Source of the DNA: an uncultured Candidatus Saccharibacteria bacterium
GTDB lineage: Bacteria; Patescibacteriota; Minisyncoccia; Phycocordibacterales; UBA9973
Length of the DNA: 64,000 bases
Assembly (NCBI GenBank): GCA_964469225.1
Contig: CAYXYC010000001.1
Coordinates: 27,556-91,555 of the forward strand
Direction: 5' to 3'
This document shows positions 6,740-59,185 of this stretch, piece after piece (positions within the stretch are counted from its first letter, which is position 1; every line of letters starts with the position of its first letter). Below the pieces are notes generated by a model, which saw only the letters and a program-made list of their open reading frames with translations, searched no databases and was not told where the DNA came from. A program made the translations under genes and the position numbers.

Positions 6740-9436
6740 ATGAATAAACGATCACGCATTCTCAATACGGGACTACAAATGCTTCTAGTAGCGTCTTTTT
6801 CCGTTTCGCATATTGCATATGGTGCATCAGAAGTAATTCCAACTGGACGCAATTTAAATTTTGATACAGTAAACACAAGCGCATACAAACCAAGTTCACA
6901 AAACATATCTAGTTCTGGTATTGCAATTAGCGTTCCAGGATGTACTGGCATTACAAATAAAGTGCAACGATCATTAGGTGGAGTTCTCTCTGGTAACCCA
7001 GAAGATCTTGTTGGTCTAGCTGATTCACTTATTGATTTTTCTAGTAACAGCGTAACAACTGCCGATCAAAATGTTGGTGATTCTCTAAAAAAATTATTTA
7101 CAACATCAAAAGATGATGCTTTCCGTGAAAATTGTATCAATGGTATCGGCTATCGTCTCGCAAAAAAACAACTTTCAGATATTACACAGAAAACATTAAA
7201 CTGGACTTCACATGGATATGATGGCGACCCACTCTTTGTTCGTGATCAAAGTTCTTTTTTCAAAGATATTTCAAACAAGGAAGTTATCCAAGCATCTAAA
7301 ACATACAGCGCCTCAAATTCAAGAAACGATTATCCATACGGTAAAGAATTTGCCCGAACAGCAATTAGTAGTAAAAAGGCGCAAAATAATTTTGAAGAGT
7401 CAGCAAAATCTGATTTGTCATATTATCTTGCACCAGGAGCAACACCAAAAAGTTTCAGTACAGACTTTTCACAGGGTGGATGGAATGGTTGGCTTGCCCT
7501 AACACAAAAACCTCAAAACAACCCTCTTGGATTCACGATGATTGCAAGTCAGCATATCGCAAACCAGTCAGCAGAAAAAATACAGAACCAACAAAATGAA
7601 TTAAATCAAAACAAGGGATTTCTCTCGGAGAAAAGATGTGTTGAATATTATCCAGCAACTGGAGGAGGGACGGGCACTGTCAGTACAACGGCTGGTGTGT
7701 ACGGAACAGCAAAAGGTGCATGTAAAACTTACGAAACAATTACTCCAGGAAGTATTATTGCTGAACAGGTTGCAACAGTGCTAACTTCACCAATTCGCCA
7801 ACTTGAACTTGCTGATGGGGTTAACGAATCACTCGGTGGCGTATTCAACTCACTCTTGAACAAACTCGGAATCCAAGGGCTACTTGGACTTTCTGGTTTT
7901 AATTCTGTAAGTAATGGATGGAAAGAAGTTGGTGGTTCTGGATACGGGTCAAATAGTTTTTCTTCACTCCAAGGCTCATTTATGACTGCCTTTGGAACAA
8001 GTTCATCGGGGCAAGACGACGCGATAATATCTGTACGAAAAGGCGATGGATGGAATTCAGATGAAAAGCCATTTGATCTAACAAAAGATCTTGGTAATAC
8101 ATATCTCCGTGGTGTCCCAAAAAGACTCGGCACTTGGGATGCAAAAAACAACATGACAACACCACTTGCTGGATCGGGAGAAACACCCCGCCAGTTAGTT
8201 CCAAGTACTGGAACGAAAAATACTTTTTATGTTGTGTCTACGGCTGGAAACACTGAACTCTCTGAACCAGAAAGTTGTTTCCCAATCAGTTATCCAAATG
8301 GAACAACATCAAACTGCTGGCAACGCGGTGACCTTGTGCTTTTTGACGGTGACCAGTGGGTGAGTGCAAAATTCTGGAATGGTGTTGATGAAAAAGGTGG
8401 GTTAAAAGACGCAGTAACTGGTAAAAGAATCCGCATTATTGACAAAAAGGGTGTTATTCAAATTCAGCAAGACTACATCAGAGCGGTCAAAGCCTCAATG
8501 AAAGAACTACCACCGATAATGCCTGCGCTTGGTGAACTTGATTATTGTATTCCTGGCCCAAATCCAAGTTGGTATGAAAGTGCCATATTGTCTAACGAAG
8601 CGCTTTCAGCATATATTAGTGGCATACAATTTGATCCGAACACTCTTGATCTCGCATTGCCTGACCCAAAACAATACGCAAGTGCGTATTATGGGCCAAC
8701 TCCTTGGAAACAATTAAACCCAGGAAAAGTTGAATCCTTCTTGCGTTTTTCATTTGCAAATATTCAAAAATCATTTGGAGATATTTTTAAACAGTATTTT
8801 AAAGAGTTTGCATTTTCAAGCATAGAGACTGCATTTTCTCAAGCAATCCAAGAAACTCAAGAATTACTCGATCAACAAAAAGAAGCAACCATAGGAAGTT
8901 TGGCTAACCAACTTAAGACATTACACGATGCATTAAATTCTATTTACGGACAGGGTGGTACTATGACGAGTGAATTTATTGTTAATAATGACAAAGAATT
9001 AGCAGATCTAAATCCTAATTATTTACCAATGGCAACAACTGGTATGTCTTTTACAAAAGACATTCGTATTTATGATGTAAACATTGCACAAGCAAACAAA
9101 GACTACCGAGACCTTCTTGATCAGGGTATTTCAAATATTTATCGTCTCAACATTATAAAATCAAAAGTTGATAAAATTATTAAGGCTGCTCAGGAACGAC
9201 GATCACGAACCGTTGGTATTGGCACAATACCTGATGATTGTTTAATGAATGAAGAGATCACATACCTGGGAGATGATGGTGTACCGACTGGAACAATTAA
9301 TGTTATTGATACAGTATCAAATACTGGAAGTGGATTAGGCGGTAGAGTTACTAGTGGATCGGGTACTGGTATTGGTAATGTTTATAATGGAAGTGAAGAA
9401 ATATCAGGTGGGGGACTTCAAGTAAACCCACAATAA
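6740..9436 (+). CDS. large secreted hypothetical protein (898 aa, Gly-rich C-terminus)
   Basis: Signal-like N-terminus (LQMLLVASFSVSHIAYGA); long ORF with consistent coding composition. Confidence 0.55.
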   Translation: MNKRSRILNTGLQMLLVASFSVSHIAYGASEVIPTGRNLNFDTVNTSAYKPSSQNISSSGIAISVPGCTGITNKVQRSLGGVLSGNPEDLVGLADSLIDFSSNSVTTADQNVGDSLKKLFTTSKDDAFRENCINGIGYRLAKKQLSDITQKTLNWTSHGYDGDPLFVRDQSSFFKDISNKEVIQASKTYSASNSRNDYPYGKEFARTAISSKKAQNNFEESAKSDLSYYLAPGATPKSFSTDFSQGGWNGWLALTQKPQNNPLGFTMIASQHIANQSAEKIQNQQNELNQNKGFLSEKRCVEYYPATGGGTGTVSTTAGVYGTAKGACKTYETITPGSIIAEQVATVLTSPIRQLELADGVNESLGGVFNSLLNKLGIQGLLGLSGFNSVSNGWKEVGGSGYGSNSFSSLQGSFMTAFGTSSSGQDDAIISVRKGDGWNSDEKPFDLTKDLGNTYLRGVPKRLGTWDAKNNMTTPLAGSGETPRQLVPSTGTKNTFYVVSTAGNTELSEPESCFPISYPNGTTSNCWQRGDLVLFDGDQWVSAKFWNGVDEKGGLKDAVTGKRIRIIDKKGVIQIQQDYIRAVKASMKELPPIMPALGELDYCIPGPNPSWYESAILSNEALSAYISGIQFDPNTLDLALPDPKQYASAYYGPTPWKQLNPGKVESFLRFSFANIQKSFGDIFKQYFKEFAFSSIETAFSQAIQETQELLDQQKEATIGSLANQLKTLHDALNSIYGQGGTMTSEFIVNNDKELADLNPNYLPMATTGMSFTKDIRIYDVNIAQANKDYRDLLDQGISNIYRLNIIKSKVDKIIKAAQERRSRTVGIGTIPDDCLMNEEITYLGDDGVPTGTINVIDTVSNTGSGLGGRVTSGSGTGIGNVYNGSEEISGGGLQVNPQ

Positions 9437-13384: not shown

Positions 13385-13664
13385 ATCCCGTTAGAGATTA
13401 TTCATGTTCTATTACACTTACATTTTAAAAAGCAAAAAAGATGGTAGGATATACACTGGATATACAAAAGATTTACGGAAGCGCCTAACACAACACAACG
13501 AAGGTTTATCTACACATACAAAAAACAGGGGTCCATTTATTATTATTTATTACGAAGCATGTATGTCAGAAGAAAAAGCACGGTCGAGAGAATTATATTT
13601 AAAATCTGGTATGGGCAAGCGTTATTTAAAAAATAGATTAGGCGCTTCCTATCTCTAACGGGAT
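13385..13664. repeat. 14-bp perfect inverted repeat pair flanking the GIY-YIG ORF
   Basis: atcccgttagagat (13385-13398) and atctctaacgggat (13651-13664). Confidence 0.7.
13404..13658 (+). CDS. GIY-YIG nuclease family small protein
   Basis: YYTYILKSKKDGRIYTGYTKDLRKRLTQHN matches the GIY-x10-YIG plus R...H/N core; 84 aa. Confidence 0.7.
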   Translation: MFYYTYILKSKKDGRIYTGYTKDLRKRLTQHNEGLSTHTKNRGPFIIIYYEACMSEEKARSRELYLKSGMGKRYLKNRLGASYL

Positions 13665-14721
13665 GAATCAAGAACAACTACAAAAATTAATCGTTGAAAT
13701 GCACAGCAAGCTCTCACCAAGGGCGCAAGAAGTTTTTTCGTCAATGGTGTGGGCTGATACTCTATCTCTGATTGAGAAAAAATATGCGCTCAATGAAACA
13801 CAAATCAGGACACTTGGAACAGAAACAACCCTTGCACTCTTGGGTGTTATTGGAATTGATGAATATGAGAAAGAGGTTGCTCGCGCCCTTGCTCACCCTG
13901 ATGAAATTACAAAAAAGATTCTTGCTGAAATTCGCGAACGAATTTTCTCGGGAATCGTGCAAGACCTAGCCGATGCGCATAGCAAAAACAAAGACAAACA
14001 AATATCAATCGAAGGATACACAGACCCGAGGTTTGCTGGCTTGCCACCGCTACTTCTAAAAGCAATTTCAGAATCAGGGTATCAGAAAAAACTCTACGAA
14101 CTTGGCACAAAACACAAACTTGCAATTGATACAATGGCAGGACTTGAAGATCTGACGATTCAATTTATGAAAGGGGAGATAGAACCAGCACAATACGAAA
14201 AAGAACTTGTTGCCTCACTCGGAATCAAACCAGATGCAAGTAAAGAAATAGCAAATGATATCAATACAACCATTCTTTTGCCAATTCGCGAACTCATGAA
14301 AAAAGAAGAACAGAAAGCGGTAACAACACCCGATATCCCATTCCCGCCATACCGCCCAACAATTAATGCAACACTCCCAAAGACACAATCAGGAATTCTC
14401 GCTACGGCTGGAATCGAAATGATCCATGACGACTACACACAAAACGACAGAAGTGTTCCAACAACAAAAAACGAAGATGGAGTGCTCACACAAGCAGGTA
14501 TTTCGGTTATTGATGAGAAACGCTCTTTAAACGAAGAACATATTCTACCAAGCCCAAGTAATCGCAATCGCGCGCTTGAAGGAATTGAACACCCGGCAAA
14601 AACAATGACCTCAATTCATGAGGAAAAACTCCAAAAAACAACCACAAGTACACCACAAACAAGTGATTACTCCCTACCTAAAATAGGTGGTGGTGATATA
14701 TACCGAGAACCAATCGGATAA
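13663..14721 (+). CDS. hypothetical acidic protein
   Basis: 352-aa ORF with no recognised motifs; its start codon lies inside the right inverted-repeat arm flanking the GIY-YIG ORF. Confidence 0.45.
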   Translation: MNQEQLQKLIVEMHSKLSPRAQEVFSSMVWADTLSLIEKKYALNETQIRTLGTETTLALLGVIGIDEYEKEVARALAHPDEITKKILAEIRERIFSGIVQDLADAHSKNKDKQISIEGYTDPRFAGLPPLLLKAISESGYQKKLYELGTKHKLAIDTMAGLEDLTIQFMKGEIEPAQYEKELVASLGIKPDASKEIANDINTTILLPIRELMKKEEQKAVTTPDIPFPPYRPTINATLPKTQSGILATAGIEMIHDDYTQNDRSVPTTKNEDGVLTQAGISVIDEKRSLNEEHILPSPSNRNRALEGIEHPAKTMTSIHEEKLQKTTTSTPQTSDYSLPKIGGGDIYREPIG

Positions 14722-45572: not shown

Positions 45573-45619
45573 TGTGTTGCGAAATGGGTTTGCATAGTGT
45601 AGATTGTGTTGGTGTAATT

Positions 45620-45691
45620 GGTCCCGTCGTTCAATGGATAGGACGTAACTTTGCGGAAGTTATGATGCAGGTTCGATTCCTGCCGGGATCA
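45620..45691 (+). tRNA. tRNA-Arg (anticodon GCG as read)
   Basis: GGTCCCG acceptor / GTTC D-stem / TAACT-TTGCGGA-AGTTA anticodon arm (G37) / GCAGG-TTCGATT-CCTGC T-arm / CGGGATC-A. Its 3' 15 nt are repeated 4.1 kb downstream. Confidence 0.7.
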
Positions 45692-47180
45692 CCCCATAGG
45701 AATTAGAGGTCAGAAATGTCTCTTTTACTTTGAAAAGACTACATATTTCTGCGGTTCGAAATTTTTCTCCGTCAAAGGTGATACCTTTTGGAAAATCGAA
45801 CCACTGTAACTGAATTTTTTCATTCGGTTCTGCTAAAGCCCATGTATTACCAGGGTTTTTTAGGAAGTCGGCAATAAAATCGAGCATGGCTTCAATCCCA
45901 ACAAATTCCTGTGACGAACCTGTTATGGCCGCATTTGCTTTCAGCAGTTCTGATTCTATATACCCCAATTGTTCACGCAAAATACTATCGGTAATTACTC
46001 CGTCAAGGTTTTTCTGAATGAGTATTCTTTGTTTTTGCTTCAGGTTGCTGATATGTTGTTCAAGTTGCTTCGATTCCTTTTGCTCGGTTTCCTGTTCCCC
46101 GATGAGGTGTTTTTTAATAAGTTTGTAGAACTTGTCATAATGCTTGTCATTCAGACTAAACTTGTTTAAAAAACTTTTAAATTCATTCTCGAATGTTTCT
46201 TTTCTAAAGTTAGCAAATTTGATATGTAGGAAACGGTAATATGGATACATGGTGCTTCTGCCTTTAGCCCAACAACCCGTCAACTTGGTGCCTGTTGAAT
46301 GACTAACAAATCGCCTTAATGGAAAGTCAGGGTGTTCGGTCAGATACTTGAAATTTCTACGGGTACGATGTTTGACTACTTGCTGTACCTGTTCGAATAA
46401 TTCCTCAGAGATAATTGGTTCATACAATCCTTTGTGCCGTTCTCCAAACTTCACTATCCATCCGGCATAAACTTCATTTCTGAGCATCATATAGAAATAT
46501 GATTTAACAATAGGCTTGCCGTTTCTGCTTTTTAATTCTTCTCGTATGGCCCATCTGTATATTTCTTCCACTGGAACGATATTTTGGGCGACTTGCTTAA
46601 ACACTTTTCGGACAAGTGGAGCAGTATCATTAGGAGCAATAGTAGCCTTGCCGTTAATCCTGCGGATATTGTCATATCCCACCGGGGCCATCCATACATA
46701 GCGACCTTCGCGCATTGCATCTTTCATTCCTTCAGAACATCGTTCAGCTCGTACCTCGTTATCAAACTGTCCGATACTGGAAATCATATTTTCCATTAAT
46801 CGGCCTGCCGGAGTATCTTCAATATGTTCAGTAGCAGATTCAACACCGACTCCATAGTTTTTTAAAATAATTTTCAAATGCCCATAGTCGTAATTCTGTC
46901 GTGAAAAACGGTCAATCTTATAAAAAATCACTGCACTGATGCGGTTTTTTGACAATGCACAATAATGAAGCAACCGTTGTAGTTCTGTACGGTTTTGAGT
47001 CTTGGCACTTTCTCCCTTTTCAAGAAAAATCTCAGCCACGTCATATCCATTTTTGAGAGCATATTCTTTACAAATACGTTCCTGCGAACTGAGACTATTC
47101 CCGTCATCAACTTGCTCCTTTGTCGATAGCCGGACACGATTTTTACATCCTGTCCGGTTTTTTATATACCCACAATTCAT
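45660..47180 (-). CDS. large serine recombinase (integrase) of the integrated element
   Basis: Catalytic-domain motifs RVRLSTKEQ (Ser nucleophile), SLSSQERICKEYALKNGY, ...IFYKIDRFSRQ, followed by recombinase and coiled-coil regions. The last 11 codons (…VIPAGIEPAS) are encoded by the complement of the tRNA-Arg 3' end. Confidence 0.8.
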   Translation of the reverse strand: MNCGYIKNRTGCKNRVRLSTKEQVDDGNSLSSQERICKEYALKNGYDVAEIFLEKGESAKTQNRTELQRLLHYCALSKNRISAVIFYKIDRFSRQNYDYGHLKIILKNYGVGVESATEHIEDTPAGRLMENMISSIGQFDNEVRAERCSEGMKDAMREGRYVWMAPVGYDNIRRINGKATIAPNDTAPLVRKVFKQVAQNIVPVEEIYRWAIREELKSRNGKPIVKSYFYMMLRNEVYAGWIVKFGERHKGLYEPIISEELFEQVQQVVKHRTRRNFKYLTEHPDFPLRRFVSHSTGTKLTGCWAKGRSTMYPYYRFLHIKFANFRKETFENEFKSFLNKFSLNDKHYDKFYKLIKKHLIGEQETEQKESKQLEQHISNLKQKQRILIQKNLDGVITDSILREQLGYIESELLKANAAITGSSQEFVGIEAMLDFIADFLKNPGNTWALAEPNEKIQLQWFDFPKGITFDGEKFRTAEICSLFKVKETFLTSNSYGVIPAGIEPAS

Positions 47181-47644
47181 CCAACCACGTATTATTAACT
47201 GTAAAATCACATTCAAAGAGAGCACTACTAGAGCGCAACATTTCATTTACAGGACAATCTTAAATAATACGATATGGTAAAACACACAATAGATATACTA
47301 CGGGACAAATAAAAAGAGGGGCCAACCCGTAGATTGAACCCCACCTTTGTAAAATTTTGCATTTACTTGAATCAAAGGAACTTGTAAATCCGATTCGTGT
47401 AAATTTTATCAAAGTAAAGCAATTCTTGCAAATTATCCAATAGGTGGGTTCAGATATGGCAGGGTTCCCTGCGGATGATCGTTCTTAGAGAGCGACCACC
47501 ATCCCATATTGCAAAGCTTCTTTTCTCAGAGTGCTTTCCGGCACCCTGTGTGTCATCAGTATTTCTGATACTGGTGGCGTGCGATGTAACCTGTCAGTCG
47601 GTATTTCAGTTCAGATTTTTAACAAATTTTTAAATAGTAATTAA

Positions 47645-48502
47645 ATGAAAAATAAAAATAAATTTTCAGATCAAATTAGTAAAGCTATCGGCACGATTAA
47701 GGAGTGCCTTAGGAAAATGACTGCCGAAGCTATTTACCTTGGTCAGCAACCGTTAGAAAATGCTGACCATACCATCTCCCTTGCTGATCGTGTAATGCCC
47801 ATTACCCGTATGGCGGAAATGCTCATTGCCGACATTGCACTTCTTCTTAATCCAAAACACGATAAAGCAGAACACAAGGTACTGCATATCCAGGCAAAAA
47901 TTATTGAGGATACACTGGACGAAAAAATCATTGAGGAAGAGAAACGTCTTAATTTGGAGGGGCGTGAAAAAAGTGATTTACTCAAACCCGGATTATTTTG
48001 CCTGTTATGGCTTGTATCAGCGGTAGCTTTGTATTGGGGTGAAGCACGCTTCCTAACCGATTCACTACAAGTTGTTGCAACGACTCGGGCAGATGCGCTA
48101 ACCTATGCAGTTGGGATTTGCATGGCTCTTATAATCATCAGTCATGGAGTACCAATGTTTATCAATATTTATCTTTCGAAACCATGGATTAGAAGAATTA
48201 GCCGTGTTTTTTTATTCCTGTTTGTCGTTGGAATATTTTATGGTCTGGGGTATTGGAGAAGTAAATATTTACATGATATGGGAAAGTCAGCCCCACCACC
48301 ATGGCAGTTTGCCATTTTTAATCTCGGATTTTTCATTGCCTTCTATACCGTAGCTGAACTGCTTCTTCTTCCGTACGCACCAGCCCTCTGGTCAGCTTGC
48401 AAGAAGTTTTGGATACGGTTACGAAAAGAATGGTTCGCAAGGCGAAAAGTAAAAGCAAAAAACAGTGTGGTTATAATACCTGAAAATTTAATCCAGAAAT
48501 AG
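47645..48502 (+). CDS. cargo membrane protein: N-terminal soluble domain plus C-terminal predicted 4-TM domain
   Basis: 285 aa; hydrophobic helices LFCLLWLVSAVALYW, VGICMALIIISHGVPMFINIYL, VFLFLFVVGIFYGLGYW, FAIFNLGFFIAFYTVAELLLL; no recognised family. Confidence 0.45.
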   Translation: MKNKNKFSDQISKAIGTIKECLRKMTAEAIYLGQQPLENADHTISLADRVMPITRMAEMLIADIALLLNPKHDKAEHKVLHIQAKIIEDTLDEKIIEEEKRLNLEGREKSDLLKPGLFCLLWLVSAVALYWGEARFLTDSLQVVATTRADALTYAVGICMALIIISHGVPMFINIYLSKPWIRRISRVFLFLFVVGIFYGLGYWRSKYLHDMGKSAPPPWQFAIFNLGFFIAFYTVAELLLLPYAPALWSACKKFWIRLRKEWFARRKVKAKNSVVIIPENLIQK

Positions 48503-48854
48503 ATTACAATGCCACAATTGCATCATAAATAGGATTTTTTAAAACCAAGGTTGCAAAGTTACAAAAAATCACTTTCTATCAATTAACCATTTTGTCCGAT
48601 GAATTAATACTATCGTTTAAATAGTCATATTGATAGTTGAATAATATTCTTACTTTTTTACACATTTCACTGCTTTTCAGTATAATATGTGGATAAAATG
48701 TTTTAACTTTCAAGAAAATTTCAATGAATATTCAATTGATTAAATTATATAAAAAAACAGGGCAAGCTTGCAGGCTTAACCCTGTTTATAATTTAATCAG
48801 GACTGACCAAGAGTCCTGTATTCACAATACCAAATATACCATGATTCCTCAGTT

Positions 48855-49523
48855 GTGCAAACTTTCATTATGGGGATTTATCCACTCTTCTTGGTCAGTT
48901 TTGAATGTAGAAGTTATATACCTCGAAAATCATTCAAATGGCTTATGGAACATAGTAATATTTCATGGAACCTGACGGATCACTCTGTGGTGGAAAATCA
49001 GTTGCTTTTTTTGCAAAGTAACTCCGAAGAAAGCATGTTTGTAACCACTCTAAAGGAGATTTGGCCAGAGAAGGATATTGCGGATTTGTTACCGGAAAAC
49101 AAAGTTCAACCTGAAGAGTTTTTTGCTCTTGTGGATGACTGTAAAGAAAAATGGGTTAGCTATAAAATCTTATGCGATACTCAGGAAGTGAATAATTTCT
49201 TAATTGGCTTAGTTGCACCTTTAAAATTATCCCCATTCGCAAACCTGTTAAAGTTAATCAAATCCAAAATTGACTTATCTGGCTTTACGAAACATCTTTC
49301 AAAGGTGGCGTCCGAACTCAATAGTGGTACTCCGGATCTTAGCAATAGATTAAGTGAAATTTTCCTTGTCGGAAAATCAATAAGTTTAGATGGCAAACTT
49401 CCATTTACTGTAACAGATACTCAAGCGGTGACCTTACTGGAATCTAATCCTGCCAATAAATTTACTGATTTACTTTTGTGCGTCATTATGGCATCAAAGA
49501 AATCAAAGGCATCCACATTCTGA
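48855..49523 (+). CDS. cargo hypothetical protein
   Basis: 222-aa ORF with no motif recognised; preceded by a TATAAT-like box and two hairpins. Confidence 0.35.
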   Translation: MQTFIMGIYPLFLVSFECRSYIPRKSFKWLMEHSNISWNLTDHSVVENQLLFLQSNSEESMFVTTLKEIWPEKDIADLLPENKVQPEEFFALVDDCKEKWVSYKILCDTQEVNNFLIGLVAPLKLSPFANLLKLIKSKIDLSGFTKHLSKVASELNSGTPDLSNRLSEIFLVGKSISLDGKLPFTVTDTQAVTLLESNPANKFTDLLLCVIMASKKSKASTF

Positions 49524-49621
49524 ATAACCTCATACTCTCTGCCAACTACTCCCAGTACCGTATCGGTAAGGGGAGGGAATTACACTTGGAGCTAGTAAAA
49601 TTGTTTTTGGAATCTTTTAAG

Positions 49622-49670
49622 TTCACAATATAAAAAGCTGAACTTCGGTTCGGCTTTTTATATTGTGGAA
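49622..49670. repeat. long perfect hairpin (17-bp stem extended by a 5-bp inner stem around a UUCG loop)
   Basis: ttcacaatataaaaagcTGAAC-ttcg-GTTCGgctttttatattgtgga. Confidence 0.6.
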
Positions 49671-50044
49671 ACGCGCGAGTAAACTACTTTACTCGCGCGC
49701 AGGAATCGAAAAGCTTTTCCATGTTTGCGATAGCAAACGGAAAAGGTGTACTGTTCGTGTAACGAAAGATTGTCCTGCCGGGATCACAAAGCATGTATTT
49801 TAAAATAGTCCCCTGCGGGACTATTTTTGCTTTGTGATGACCGCAGTGGTGTTTTGCCAGTAGGCAAAACCACGAGGGGCGGGCTGCGAAAATTTCGAAC
49901 GGCGGTGAGAAATTATTTGTAGCCACAAGTAAATATTTCGAGCAAGCAAACTGCTTTGCTTGCGTGCAGGAATCGAAAGACTGGTGTTGTTTTGATTACA
50001 AAACCACCAATCACGCGCCGTAGGCGAGATTACCCTGCCGAGGT

Positions 50045-50620
50045 TTAATTTACCTTATCTACCTCCTCCAACAACTCTGGGAATTCTTCTGTTCCCATAT
50101 CTTCAAAACAGAAATGCCCCATTTTTTCAAATGATACAACGCGTGCATCTTTTATTTTTTCTGTAAGAATTTTCACGCTCTCTTGTACATCTGCCATATC
50201 ATCGGTAGAACTGAAAATAGTAATACCTTTTGTTTTTGAAATAATATTTTCATCAATACCAAACTCAAACATTTTGCTTTGAAGTGAATGTGTTGGATCA
50301 ATCCATGGCGCAACGAGAATTACTTTGCCGACATGAATATCATGTTCGCTCAAATACCTGACAATAAATCCAGCCCCACACGAATGCCCGATGAGAATTG
50401 TTTCTGTGTCGAGTGGGAAATATTCAAATACCTGTTTCCATGCATCGTAATCAGGTGCATACGGATGAGGCATCTCCGGTGTCTGTGCGAGAATATCCTT
50501 GACTATGAGTTGTCGTTGTATCCAGGGAAGCCAGTGGGAGTTTGATGCGGCGCCGTTTCGGGCATCACGGTGTTCATTTTCGCTATCCCACATTCCATGA
50601 ATAATGATTGCTGTTTTCAT
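50045..50620 (-). CDS. alpha/beta-hydrolase-fold serine hydrolase (YdeN/RBBP9-like)
   Basis: GHSCGAG (GxSxG nucleophile elbow); 191 aa. Confidence 0.6.
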   Translation of the reverse strand: MKTAIIIHGMWDSENEHRDARNGAASNSHWLPWIQRQLIVKDILAQTPEMPHPYAPDYDAWKQVFEYFPLDTETILIGHSCGAGFIVRYLSEHDIHVGKVILVAPWIDPTHSLQSKMFEFGIDENIISKTKGITIFSSTDDMADVQESVKILTEKIKDARVVSFEKMGHFCFEDMGTEEFPELLEEVDKVN

Positions 50621-54132: not shown

Positions 54133-54395
54133 AGCATGATTGGGTGGGGGGAGGAAAAGAGAGAAAAGTAAATAATTTTAGGTGCAAAATTTTATTTTGG
54201 CGGAGGCGGTGAGATTCGGTCACGAATCACTAAGTATTTTATTTCGTTCTACTCATAAAATACAAAGTGTTCGCGACCCCGGCTCGACGACACCGACTAA
54301 TGTCGGCGTATACCGTCTGCGCCTTTCGAATCTCACAAGCATCCCTCAATGATAACAAAAAATAACTGGGCGAACCCAGTCATTTTTTGTCATTG

Positions 54396-59035: not shown

Positions 59036-59185
59036 AACTAACACCGAAGGTGTTGAGGAGGGGCTTGAAAGCCGGACTCCGACGCAGGTCGGAGGAGGCG
59101 GGGTAGCAGAATTTTTCAGCAGAAAAATATCTGTGACCAAGTCCCTCATCGCGCACATTATTGTGATACGATAGAACTATACATG

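Follow-up and report, generated by a model that had tools for sequence, protein, structure and literature searches.

In the window, by which we mean the whole 64,000-nucleotide stretch of DNA analysed here, a tRNA-Arg(GCG) gene lies at 45619-45694 on the plus strand, as found by ARAGORN, by the Rfam tRNA model and from the sequence itself. The segment from T54 to its 3' terminus (45672-45692) is the source of the tRNA copies described below. The 3' end of this gene is overlapped by the last codons of a large serine recombinase gene on the minus strand (45660-47246, 528 amino acids), which displays the Pfam Resolvase and Recombinase domains, matches a PHROG integrase and has more than 1250 homologues. 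Together with two ORFs (47645-48502 and 48855-49523) this gene makes up an islet of 3.93 kb, from approximately 45693 to 49626. The non-coding tract under study (49524-50044) is flanked by convergent ORFs, 48855-49523 on the plus strand and a serine hydrolase ORF at 50045-50620 on the minus strand. A Pfam search with the ORF at 48855-49523, which encodes 222 amino acids, gave no match. The sister contig L001 (ENA ERZ4216102), which is of the same strain, lacks about 25 nt inside this ORF (window ~ 49244-49268) and its frame is shifted, hence an exact-protein look-up returned no record; judging from this deletion the ORF may be decaying. Homologues of the malic enzyme and of the recombinase of the window are named Paceibacterota or Nomurabacteria, and the host genome is a Paceibacteria-like member of the Patescibacteria. 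Several of its tRNA species (Arg-gcg, Ser-tga, Val-tac beside Arg-tct, Leu-gag) are also found in L009, a Paceibacterota MAG, in a rearranged order.

Two modules of the tract, A (49672-49711) and B (49939-49978), form a direct repeat of 40 nt with 83% identity, and their stems differ by two double changes that preserve pairing (T:A to C:G and G:C to A:T). Both carry an exact minus-strand copy of TTCGATTCCTGC, at 49699-710 and 49966-977, and the plus-strand copy of this 12-mer lies inside tRNA-Arg(GCG) at 45672-83. Each module thus contains the exact reverse complement of T54-C65, i.e. of the T-loop and the 3' strand of the T-stem. The identity ends exactly at T54, the modules having a T where tRNAs have G53. 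At one mismatch or less the T-arm 12-mer has five matches in the window against 0.37 expected, and five were reached in none of 100 shuffles; a match with one mismatch at 14407-14418, inside the ORF 13663-14721, was judged to be due to chance. All the hairpins listed fold far more stably than shuffled sequences, with z = -9.4 for 49615-75, z = -4.6 for 49795-875, z = -3.6 for the region of module A and z = -3.4 for that of module B. The modules, their paired stem changes, the reverse complement of the T-arm and the additional hairpins had all been reported by the first-pass annotation, and each was recovered where it had been placed.

With the Rfam 15 covariance models only tRNAs reached threshold in the window and in the tract at E ≤ 10, and again only tRNAs at E ≤ 1 in 12 unit-bearing loci. 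HDV-like, hammerhead and other ribozymes, a tmRNA and a permuted tRNA were considered and found no support from Rfam or ARAGORN. A promoter consensus scan of 49300-50300 gave three weak promoter-like sites against about two expected, and no promoter was identified.

When resolved, the tract is a tandem stack of three non-coding insertion units, A, B1 and B2, all on the plus strand beyond the right end of the islet. Unit A (49627-49787) was delimited from sequence and folding. It displays a bidirectional terminator hairpin (49622-70), a conserved hairpin (49673-98), the inverted T-loop/T-stem 12-mer (49699-710), a helix P1 (49711-20 with 49739-47) that encloses the hairpin P2 (49723-38), an invariant GTACTG (49748-53), a hairpin P3 with a GTA loop (49754-66) and finally a direct repeat of the tRNA 3' end (49773-87, 15 of 15 positions). 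Its spacer and repeat are also found in L110, behind a tRNA-Arg(GCG), as a single unit and with no recombinase. Unit B1 (49788-49925), whose spacer class is common to L097, L126, L142 and L198, has a terminator (49802-27) and then the tRNA 3' end in inverted orientation and with no interruption, GTGATGACCGCAG (49834-46), followed by two hairpins (49846-73 and 49889-914) around the motif GAGGGGCGGGCTGCGA (49874-89) and by the right end ATTTGTAGCC (49915-24), the direct repeat being lost. Unit B2 (49926-50043) has a spacer like that of L127 and a hairpin core identical to those of L052 and L013. It consists of the conserved hairpin (49939-64), the inverted 12-mer (49966-77, 12 of 12), a hairpin at 49981-50010, a GCGCC-GTA-GGCG hairpin (50015-26) and a decayed direct repeat, CCCTGCCGAGG (50033-43). 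The extra hairpins of the tract fall within these coordinates and hence belong to units A and B1. The spacer classes of the three units differ, A being close to L110 and B2 to L127, and from these comparisons the units appear to be independent insertions and not products of local duplication. The earlier view of the tract as a record of repeated insertions at one tRNA hotspot holds, the record being made up of three small units and the recombinase islet.

Units of the same kind lie behind other tRNA genes, so that three of the seven tRNA genes in the window bear them. Behind tRNA-Ser(TGA), a unit on the minus strand (54199-54394) displays a terminator (54357-88), an inverted 12-mer matching at 12 of 12 positions (54325-36) and not accompanied by the split hairpin, then a structured spacer and a direct repeat of 19 nt (54199-217). 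Another one, on the plus strand between tRNA-Val(TAC) and tRNA-Arg(TCT) (59036-59156), shows a small hairpin (59041-53), an inverted 12-mer matching at 11 of 12 positions (59058-69), a spacer and a direct repeat of 18 nt (59139-56). Since it is placed between two co-oriented tRNAs with no terminator, this unit is probably co-transcribed with them.

The first-pass annotation had placed the tract around attR and had suggested that the modules were decayed attachment-site scars, each a tRNA 3' half followed by a terminator, left by repeated integrations at this tRNA hotspot, which we take here as those of the serine-recombinase element. The presence of a recombinase islet at tRNA-Arg(GCG) agrees with such an origin, as does the pairing of a recombinase islet with modules in L012 and L052. 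The junction itself was located by means of L205 and L206, in which the recombinase gene is 92% identical in DNA and the contig carries a TrwB-like gene and no tRNA. These are colinear with the window from 47133 to 45690 and then from 49626 to 49567, with an overlap of 3 nt, CAC; hence the crossover falls on the very 3' terminus of the tRNA, with the core CAC at 45690-92 and 49624-26, and the islet spans approximately 45693-49626. Its non-coding right end on the plus strand (49524-49626) is the P arm of attP, 60 nt of which are 83% identical to the sequence that follows the recombinase in L205/L206. The modules begin 46 nt past the junction seen in L205 (window 45690 joined to 49626), on the host side, and attP contains no module. 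The 15-bp repeat at 49773-87, which was considered as attR of the recombinase, was rejected, as it forms the direct repeat that ends unit A and is also present in the recombinase-free L110; the true junction at 49624-26 lies 147 bp from this obvious repeat.

Moreover, among the matches listed in the metagenome survey described below (at least 120 contigs), no homologue of the window recombinase is encoded on any module-bearing contig, and a single one carries a serine recombinase, with 24% identity. Conversely, about 37 of 40 loci with a recombinase and a tRNA show no module within 8 kb, and at the far ends of these 40 loci, most of which are located past 8 kb or display no long repeat, modules were seen only in L012 and L052. 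Random decay would not give the precise common boundaries and the conserved inserted hairpin of the modules either, and what was taken for a tRNA 3' half with its terminator is the tRNA 3' end copied in inverted orientation, with a conserved hairpin inserted at 65/66, and contained in a complete unit of 120-250 bp. The scar reading is thus largely refuted and we regard it as highly improbable. The units are independent of the adjacent recombinase islet, which inserted separately and later, at the exact point where the tRNA met unit A.

Several observations concern the recombinase itself. In L205, a contig from activated sludge, its gene is found at 7001-8662 among TrwB-like, IS3-type transposase, Por_Secre_tail and ubiquitin-like (BubE/ThiF/E2/JAB) genes; from this gene content L205 may be the attP form of a conjugative or mobilizable element from a Bacteroidota-like host, which would suggest that the recombinase has spread across phyla. 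In the window the last ~ 11 codons of the recombinase cross the crossover into the tRNA (45660-45694), therefore the C-terminus differs between the integrated form of 528 amino acids and the attP form of 553-554 amino acids (P0121, P0002). In L075 a near-complete inverted copy of the tRNA-Ala 3' end, GGTTCGAGTCGGCTTGGGTC (7793-7815), immediately precedes the gene of a recombinase homologue that overlaps tRNA-Ala with its 3' end, and this gene is thus flanked by inverted and not by direct copies.

In the better-preserved relatives of the modules, the hairpin lies between the 3' strand of the T-stem and the 3' strand of the acceptor stem of an inverted copy of the local tRNA. The order is TTCGAGTCCTGA-[hairpin]-TTAGGGTCCAC in L012, adjoining tRNA-Ala, and TTCGAATCCTAC-C-[hairpin]-CCGGCGAGAC in L052, adjoining tRNA-Tyr. 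The same arrangement is found with no recombinase nearby at tRNA-Leu in L009, at tRNA-Ala, -Pro and -Val in L013, and at tRNA-Ser(TGA) and tRNA-Val(TAC) in the window. Read in the sense of the tRNA, a unit runs from the tRNA 3' end through a terminator palindrome, the inverted acceptor strand, a hairpin of 25 nt, the inverted T-arm 12-mer and a structured spacer of 55-105 nt, which folds into two or three hairpins, to the direct repeat of the tRNA 3' end. The inverted copy extends from T54 to the terminus of the same tRNA, and the unit measures 120-250 bp and contains no ORF. The conserved hairpin, with the consensus ACGCGAGCAAAGCAGTTTGCTCGCT on the other strand, often splits the inverted copy at 65/66 and is optional, being absent from the Ser unit of the window, from B1 and from the units of L009. 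Most units lie between two terminators; in some, no terminator separates the unit from the tRNA.

In order to survey the family, metagenome contigs were searched with a pattern in which the hairpin core and some T-loop positions were fixed and six of the 12 T-arm positions were left free; base conservation at the fixed positions is thus partly a matter of ascertainment. Matches were found on at least 120 contigs. Among the matches listed (123 modules), a co-oriented tRNA ends within 400 nt upstream of the module in 96 cases and within 120 nt in 83, at a median distance of 69.5 nt. Again among the matches listed, these tRNAs represent 15 amino-acid specificities and one ARAGORN 'Stop' call, the T-arm 12-mer is that of the local tRNA in 63 of 96 modules and differs by at most one mismatch in 82 of 96, and a direct repeat of at least 8 nt is present 55-105 nt past the module in 70 of 83 units. 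Across units the direct repeat ranges from 8 to 22 nt. Several spacer sequence classes exist, each of which is found at many tRNA types, and in the tandem arrays that occur the copy nearest to the tRNA is the best preserved. A looser scan for a T-loop next to any hairpin returned mostly noise and recovered the Leu unit of L009, and a relaxed module pattern gave two matches on viral contigs, both within coding regions and judged to be due to chance. Downstream of the units in L112, L124, L128 and L162, a short right-end motif, GAAAAGCGTACTCGCGG, and the tRNA T-stem/acceptor sequence that follows it are repeated in tandem; from their sequence these arrays look as if older units had been deleted down to their right junctions. 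Unusual anticodons were called by ARAGORN on three unit-bearing contigs (L126 2358-2431, L093 5601-5688 and L199 1289-1376), namely TTA ('Stop', a possible UAA suppressor) and a tRNA-Ser(ACT). In a full-text literature search of incomplete coverage no description of the units was found, and we provisionally regard them as an apparently undescribed family.

These counts bear directly on whether the modules could be ordinary intrinsic terminators or REP-like palindromes that resemble a T-arm by chance. The position of the tract between convergent genes would suit them, and real terminator-like hairpins are present: a GC-rich hairpin followed by a U-run was found at 49802-27 by the terminator scan and at 49622-70 by sequence reading and folding, the latter not being listed by the scan. 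The module hairpins (49673-98 and 49939-64), on the other hand, have no T-run on either strand. Furthermore, in a control of 73 tRNAs with adequate flanks, the inverted 12-mer (at most two mismatches) occurs within 400 nt downstream of nine and upstream of none, usually 53-60 nt past the tRNA end. This control and the perfect match to the local tRNA at positions left free by the search pattern, together with the enrichment of the T-arm 12-mer in the window, refute a chance resemblance, to which we attach next to no probability. The association with tRNAs, which had been proposed as the means of telling the modules from ordinary terminators, is hence borne out by the 96 of 123 modules behind a tRNA and the 63 of 96 perfect T-arms among the matches listed.

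A local origin that involves no mobility, by template switching during replication at the terminator palindrome and growth of the quasi-palindrome into the tRNA 3' end, with duplications nearby, was also weighed. Indeed, the inverted copy extends the terminator palindrome, in B1 it follows the terminator directly and is uninterrupted, and it is complementary to the gene's own flank and not to the mature CCA end. Template switching nevertheless leaves unexplained the hairpin and spacer sequences common to different tRNAs and distant genomes, the constant boundary at T54 and the direct repeat 55-105 nt away, and we consider it very unlikely. The complementarity to the gene's own flank instead of the CCA end is also the reason for which the idea of reverse transcription from a primer-binding site was rejected.

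In 88 cases versus 27 (p = 8e-11) it is the tRNA-sense strand of the spacer that folds more stably, compared with 52 versus 53 in the control. Double changes are seen in 14 of 19 consensus pairs among 20 class-1 units, G-U pairs outnumber A-C pairs 10 to 1, and the unpaired GTACTG motif and the GTA loop are invariant. The stem of the 25-nt hairpin covaries as well; a manual tally for this hairpin alone gave G-T versus A-C as 4 against 10, too few to decide. Considering the double changes and the stem covariation, the structure appears to be under selection in the active lineage. The two tRNA copies behave otherwise. At the six unconstrained T-arm positions they have diverged equally from the tRNA (33/396 for the inverted copy and 30/361 for the direct repeat, 8.3% each), figures that rest on the T-arm part, the acceptor-strand part being out of register by one base and hence only rough. 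Where the direct repeat departs from the tRNA, the inverted copy mostly retains the tRNA state (41 versus 8), therefore the two are not co-evolving as a helix; they look frozen at insertion.

An RNA made in one transcript with the tRNA would account just as well for this strand-specific folding. The units would then be genes or 3'-trailer segments of a structured RNA transcribed with the tRNA, the DNA repeats being secondary, and the inverted copy would pair with the tRNA-like 3' end into a helix resembling an acceptor/T-stem, to which RNase P, RNase Z or the CCA enzyme could be recruited, or else the copy itself would serve as a guide or regulator. The compensatory changes in three helices, the invariant unpaired GTACTG and GTA loop, and the units that have no terminator after the tRNA or lie between co-oriented tRNAs, as in the Val-Arg pair, all speak for such an RNA. 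Most units are nevertheless bracketed by two terminators, and the helix that the inverted copy would form with the direct repeat bears no compensatory changes and has decayed as fast as neutral copies do. Neither an Rfam family nor, in the scan of 49300-50300, a promoter was found, and GNA-type triloops, including GTA, are known from, and more typical of, stable DNA hairpins. On balance an RNA role seems rather unlikely as the primary explanation, yet we take it as a serious rival; it also overlaps with the explanation we prefer, as an RNA element could be mobile too. The earlier suggestion of a structured RNA family associated with the element survives in part: the units are structured, covarying and tied to tRNAs, while the link to the element falls away, as no homologue of the recombinase was found on the module-bearing contigs listed.

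The explanation that we favour, with modest confidence, is that the tract holds three members of a non-coding and non-autonomous mobile family of 120-250 bp that targets tRNA 3' ends in Patescibacteria. The family is widespread, structured, specific to tRNA 3' ends and accessory, and three copies of it are stacked here. Its accessory nature is seen in L211, where an identical tRNA-Arg(GCG) is followed by only a plain terminator and the next gene. This unoccupied, non-orthologous site was all that a search for orthologous empty sites by means of malic-enzyme homologues yielded, synteny not being conserved. From sequence comparison we infer that the units move. Indeed, the 3' half of the spacer behind tRNA-Ser of the window is ~ 95% identical (by eye, over ~ 60 nt) to that of a tRNA-Val unit in the distant L009, whereas the recombinases of the two hosts are only 50% identical. 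Among the loci compared, no excised or circular form of a unit was seen and no orthologous pair of filled and empty sites was found.

According to this mobile model, a unit would insert at the tRNA 3' end and leave a working tRNA and terminator, and newer units would push older copies outward, which would make A the youngest and B2 the oldest of the stack. Together with the terminator and the inverted copy, the tRNA end is predicted to form one long interrupted palindrome. Given this palindrome and the structural selection on the tRNA-sense strand only, the substrate of recombination or recognition is probably a folded single strand, either ssDNA in the manner of the CTX-phage attP and the integron attC or RNA, which would be acted on by an enzyme encoded elsewhere. 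Several further points count against the mobile reading. Within one spacer class the inverted and direct copies match different tRNAs, a double-stranded circle as small as 150-250 bp would not form easily, and there is no linked enzyme, only housekeeping genes being found within 3 kb of the units. In particular, no TnpA, TnpB or IS110 gene was found within 3 kb of the units, nor near those of the window. The first point could be met by copying from the target at insertion, by a guide-like choice of target or by exchange of spacers between conserved flanks. A more specific proposal, which we hold to be unlikely, is that the units are enzyme-less and self-specifying mobile elements, each carrying an inverted, hairpin-split copy of its target. 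This copy would mimic a double-stranded target with the tRNA-like end or act as a guide, and a single trans-acting enzyme could serve any tRNA 3' end.

Tandem accretion and cis-mobilizable elements (CIMEs) are known for tRNA-targeting islands. Islander-type islands target tRNA genes, regenerate the tRNA 3' end and leave a displaced fragment (PMC4383910). The units resemble them in the direct repeat that bounds the insert, the intact tRNA with its displaced 3' repeat (15 of 15 positions for unit A, 19 nt for Ser, 18 nt for Val), the tandem stacking with the presumably newest copy nearest to the tRNA and the existence of small forms with no recombinase. They differ by their size of 120-250 bp, the structured core, the inverted and hairpin-split target copy and the strand-specific structural selection. 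Unlike these islands they also have no integrase inside the insert, nor any ORF, and they lie among housekeeping genes; a parent element was not found. Integration at tRNA/tmRNA 3' ends is also documented for large serine recombinase islands, such as the ssrA islands of Dehalococcoides (PMC3146451). The 3.93-kb islet, with its recombinase at the edge and its integration at the extreme tRNA 3' end, is like them, a likeness limited to the islet, as the modules are not part of it.

As to single-stranded substrates, the attP(+) of CTX phage and the integron attC are folded single-strand recombination sites, and IMEX-type elements have no recombinase of their own. The units share with these the integrated order of site, loop, inverted site, rest of the element and site, as well as an imperfect palindrome with an extra-helical feature, the constraint on one strand and the absence of a recombinase from a small element. 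Unlike them they target the tRNA 3' end and not dif or attI; in the units, for which such a folded site is a hypothetical model, no Xer- or IntI-type site motif was recognised, and no ssDNA replicon or Rep protein is known for them. Elements of the IS200/IS605 type are associated with palindromes, and the TnpB omega RNA and the IS110 bridge RNA represent non-coding ends that bear guides. Strand-specific hairpins, a hairpin flanked by target-matching segments, a structured scaffold followed by target-identical sequence and the occurrence of non-autonomous copies are common to these systems and the units. On the other hand, both target-matching segments of the units are on the same strand, in contrast to the bridge RNA, their match is of 21 nt and not a 4-nt guide, they have direct repeats, which IS200/IS605 does not make, and they have no adjoining enzyme gene of the kind found with the IS110 bridge RNA or the TnpB omega RNA. 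TnpB-like genes have been reported in Patescibacteria (PMC13011429). Compared with MITEs, the inverted copy and the direct repeat form an inverted pair of 21 nt around the spacer, which matches the local tRNA and not a transposase end, the repeat measures 8 to 22 nt, and no parent IS was found.

The genomes of Patescibacteria are tiny, and few mobile elements have been recognised in them, yet units are present at three of the seven tRNAs of this window and on at least 120 contigs. They create false 'att' repeats and can mislead the calling of island boundaries, and they may affect the termination or processing of tRNAs. If mobile, they would represent an abundant and overlooked tRNA-directed class with no linked enzyme, whose inverted target copy points to an unusual recognition of the target; their phylogenetic profiling offers a testable route to the enzyme responsible. 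Should the units also prove to be self-specifying, they would constitute a programmable tRNA-directed insertion system in ultra-small bacteria.
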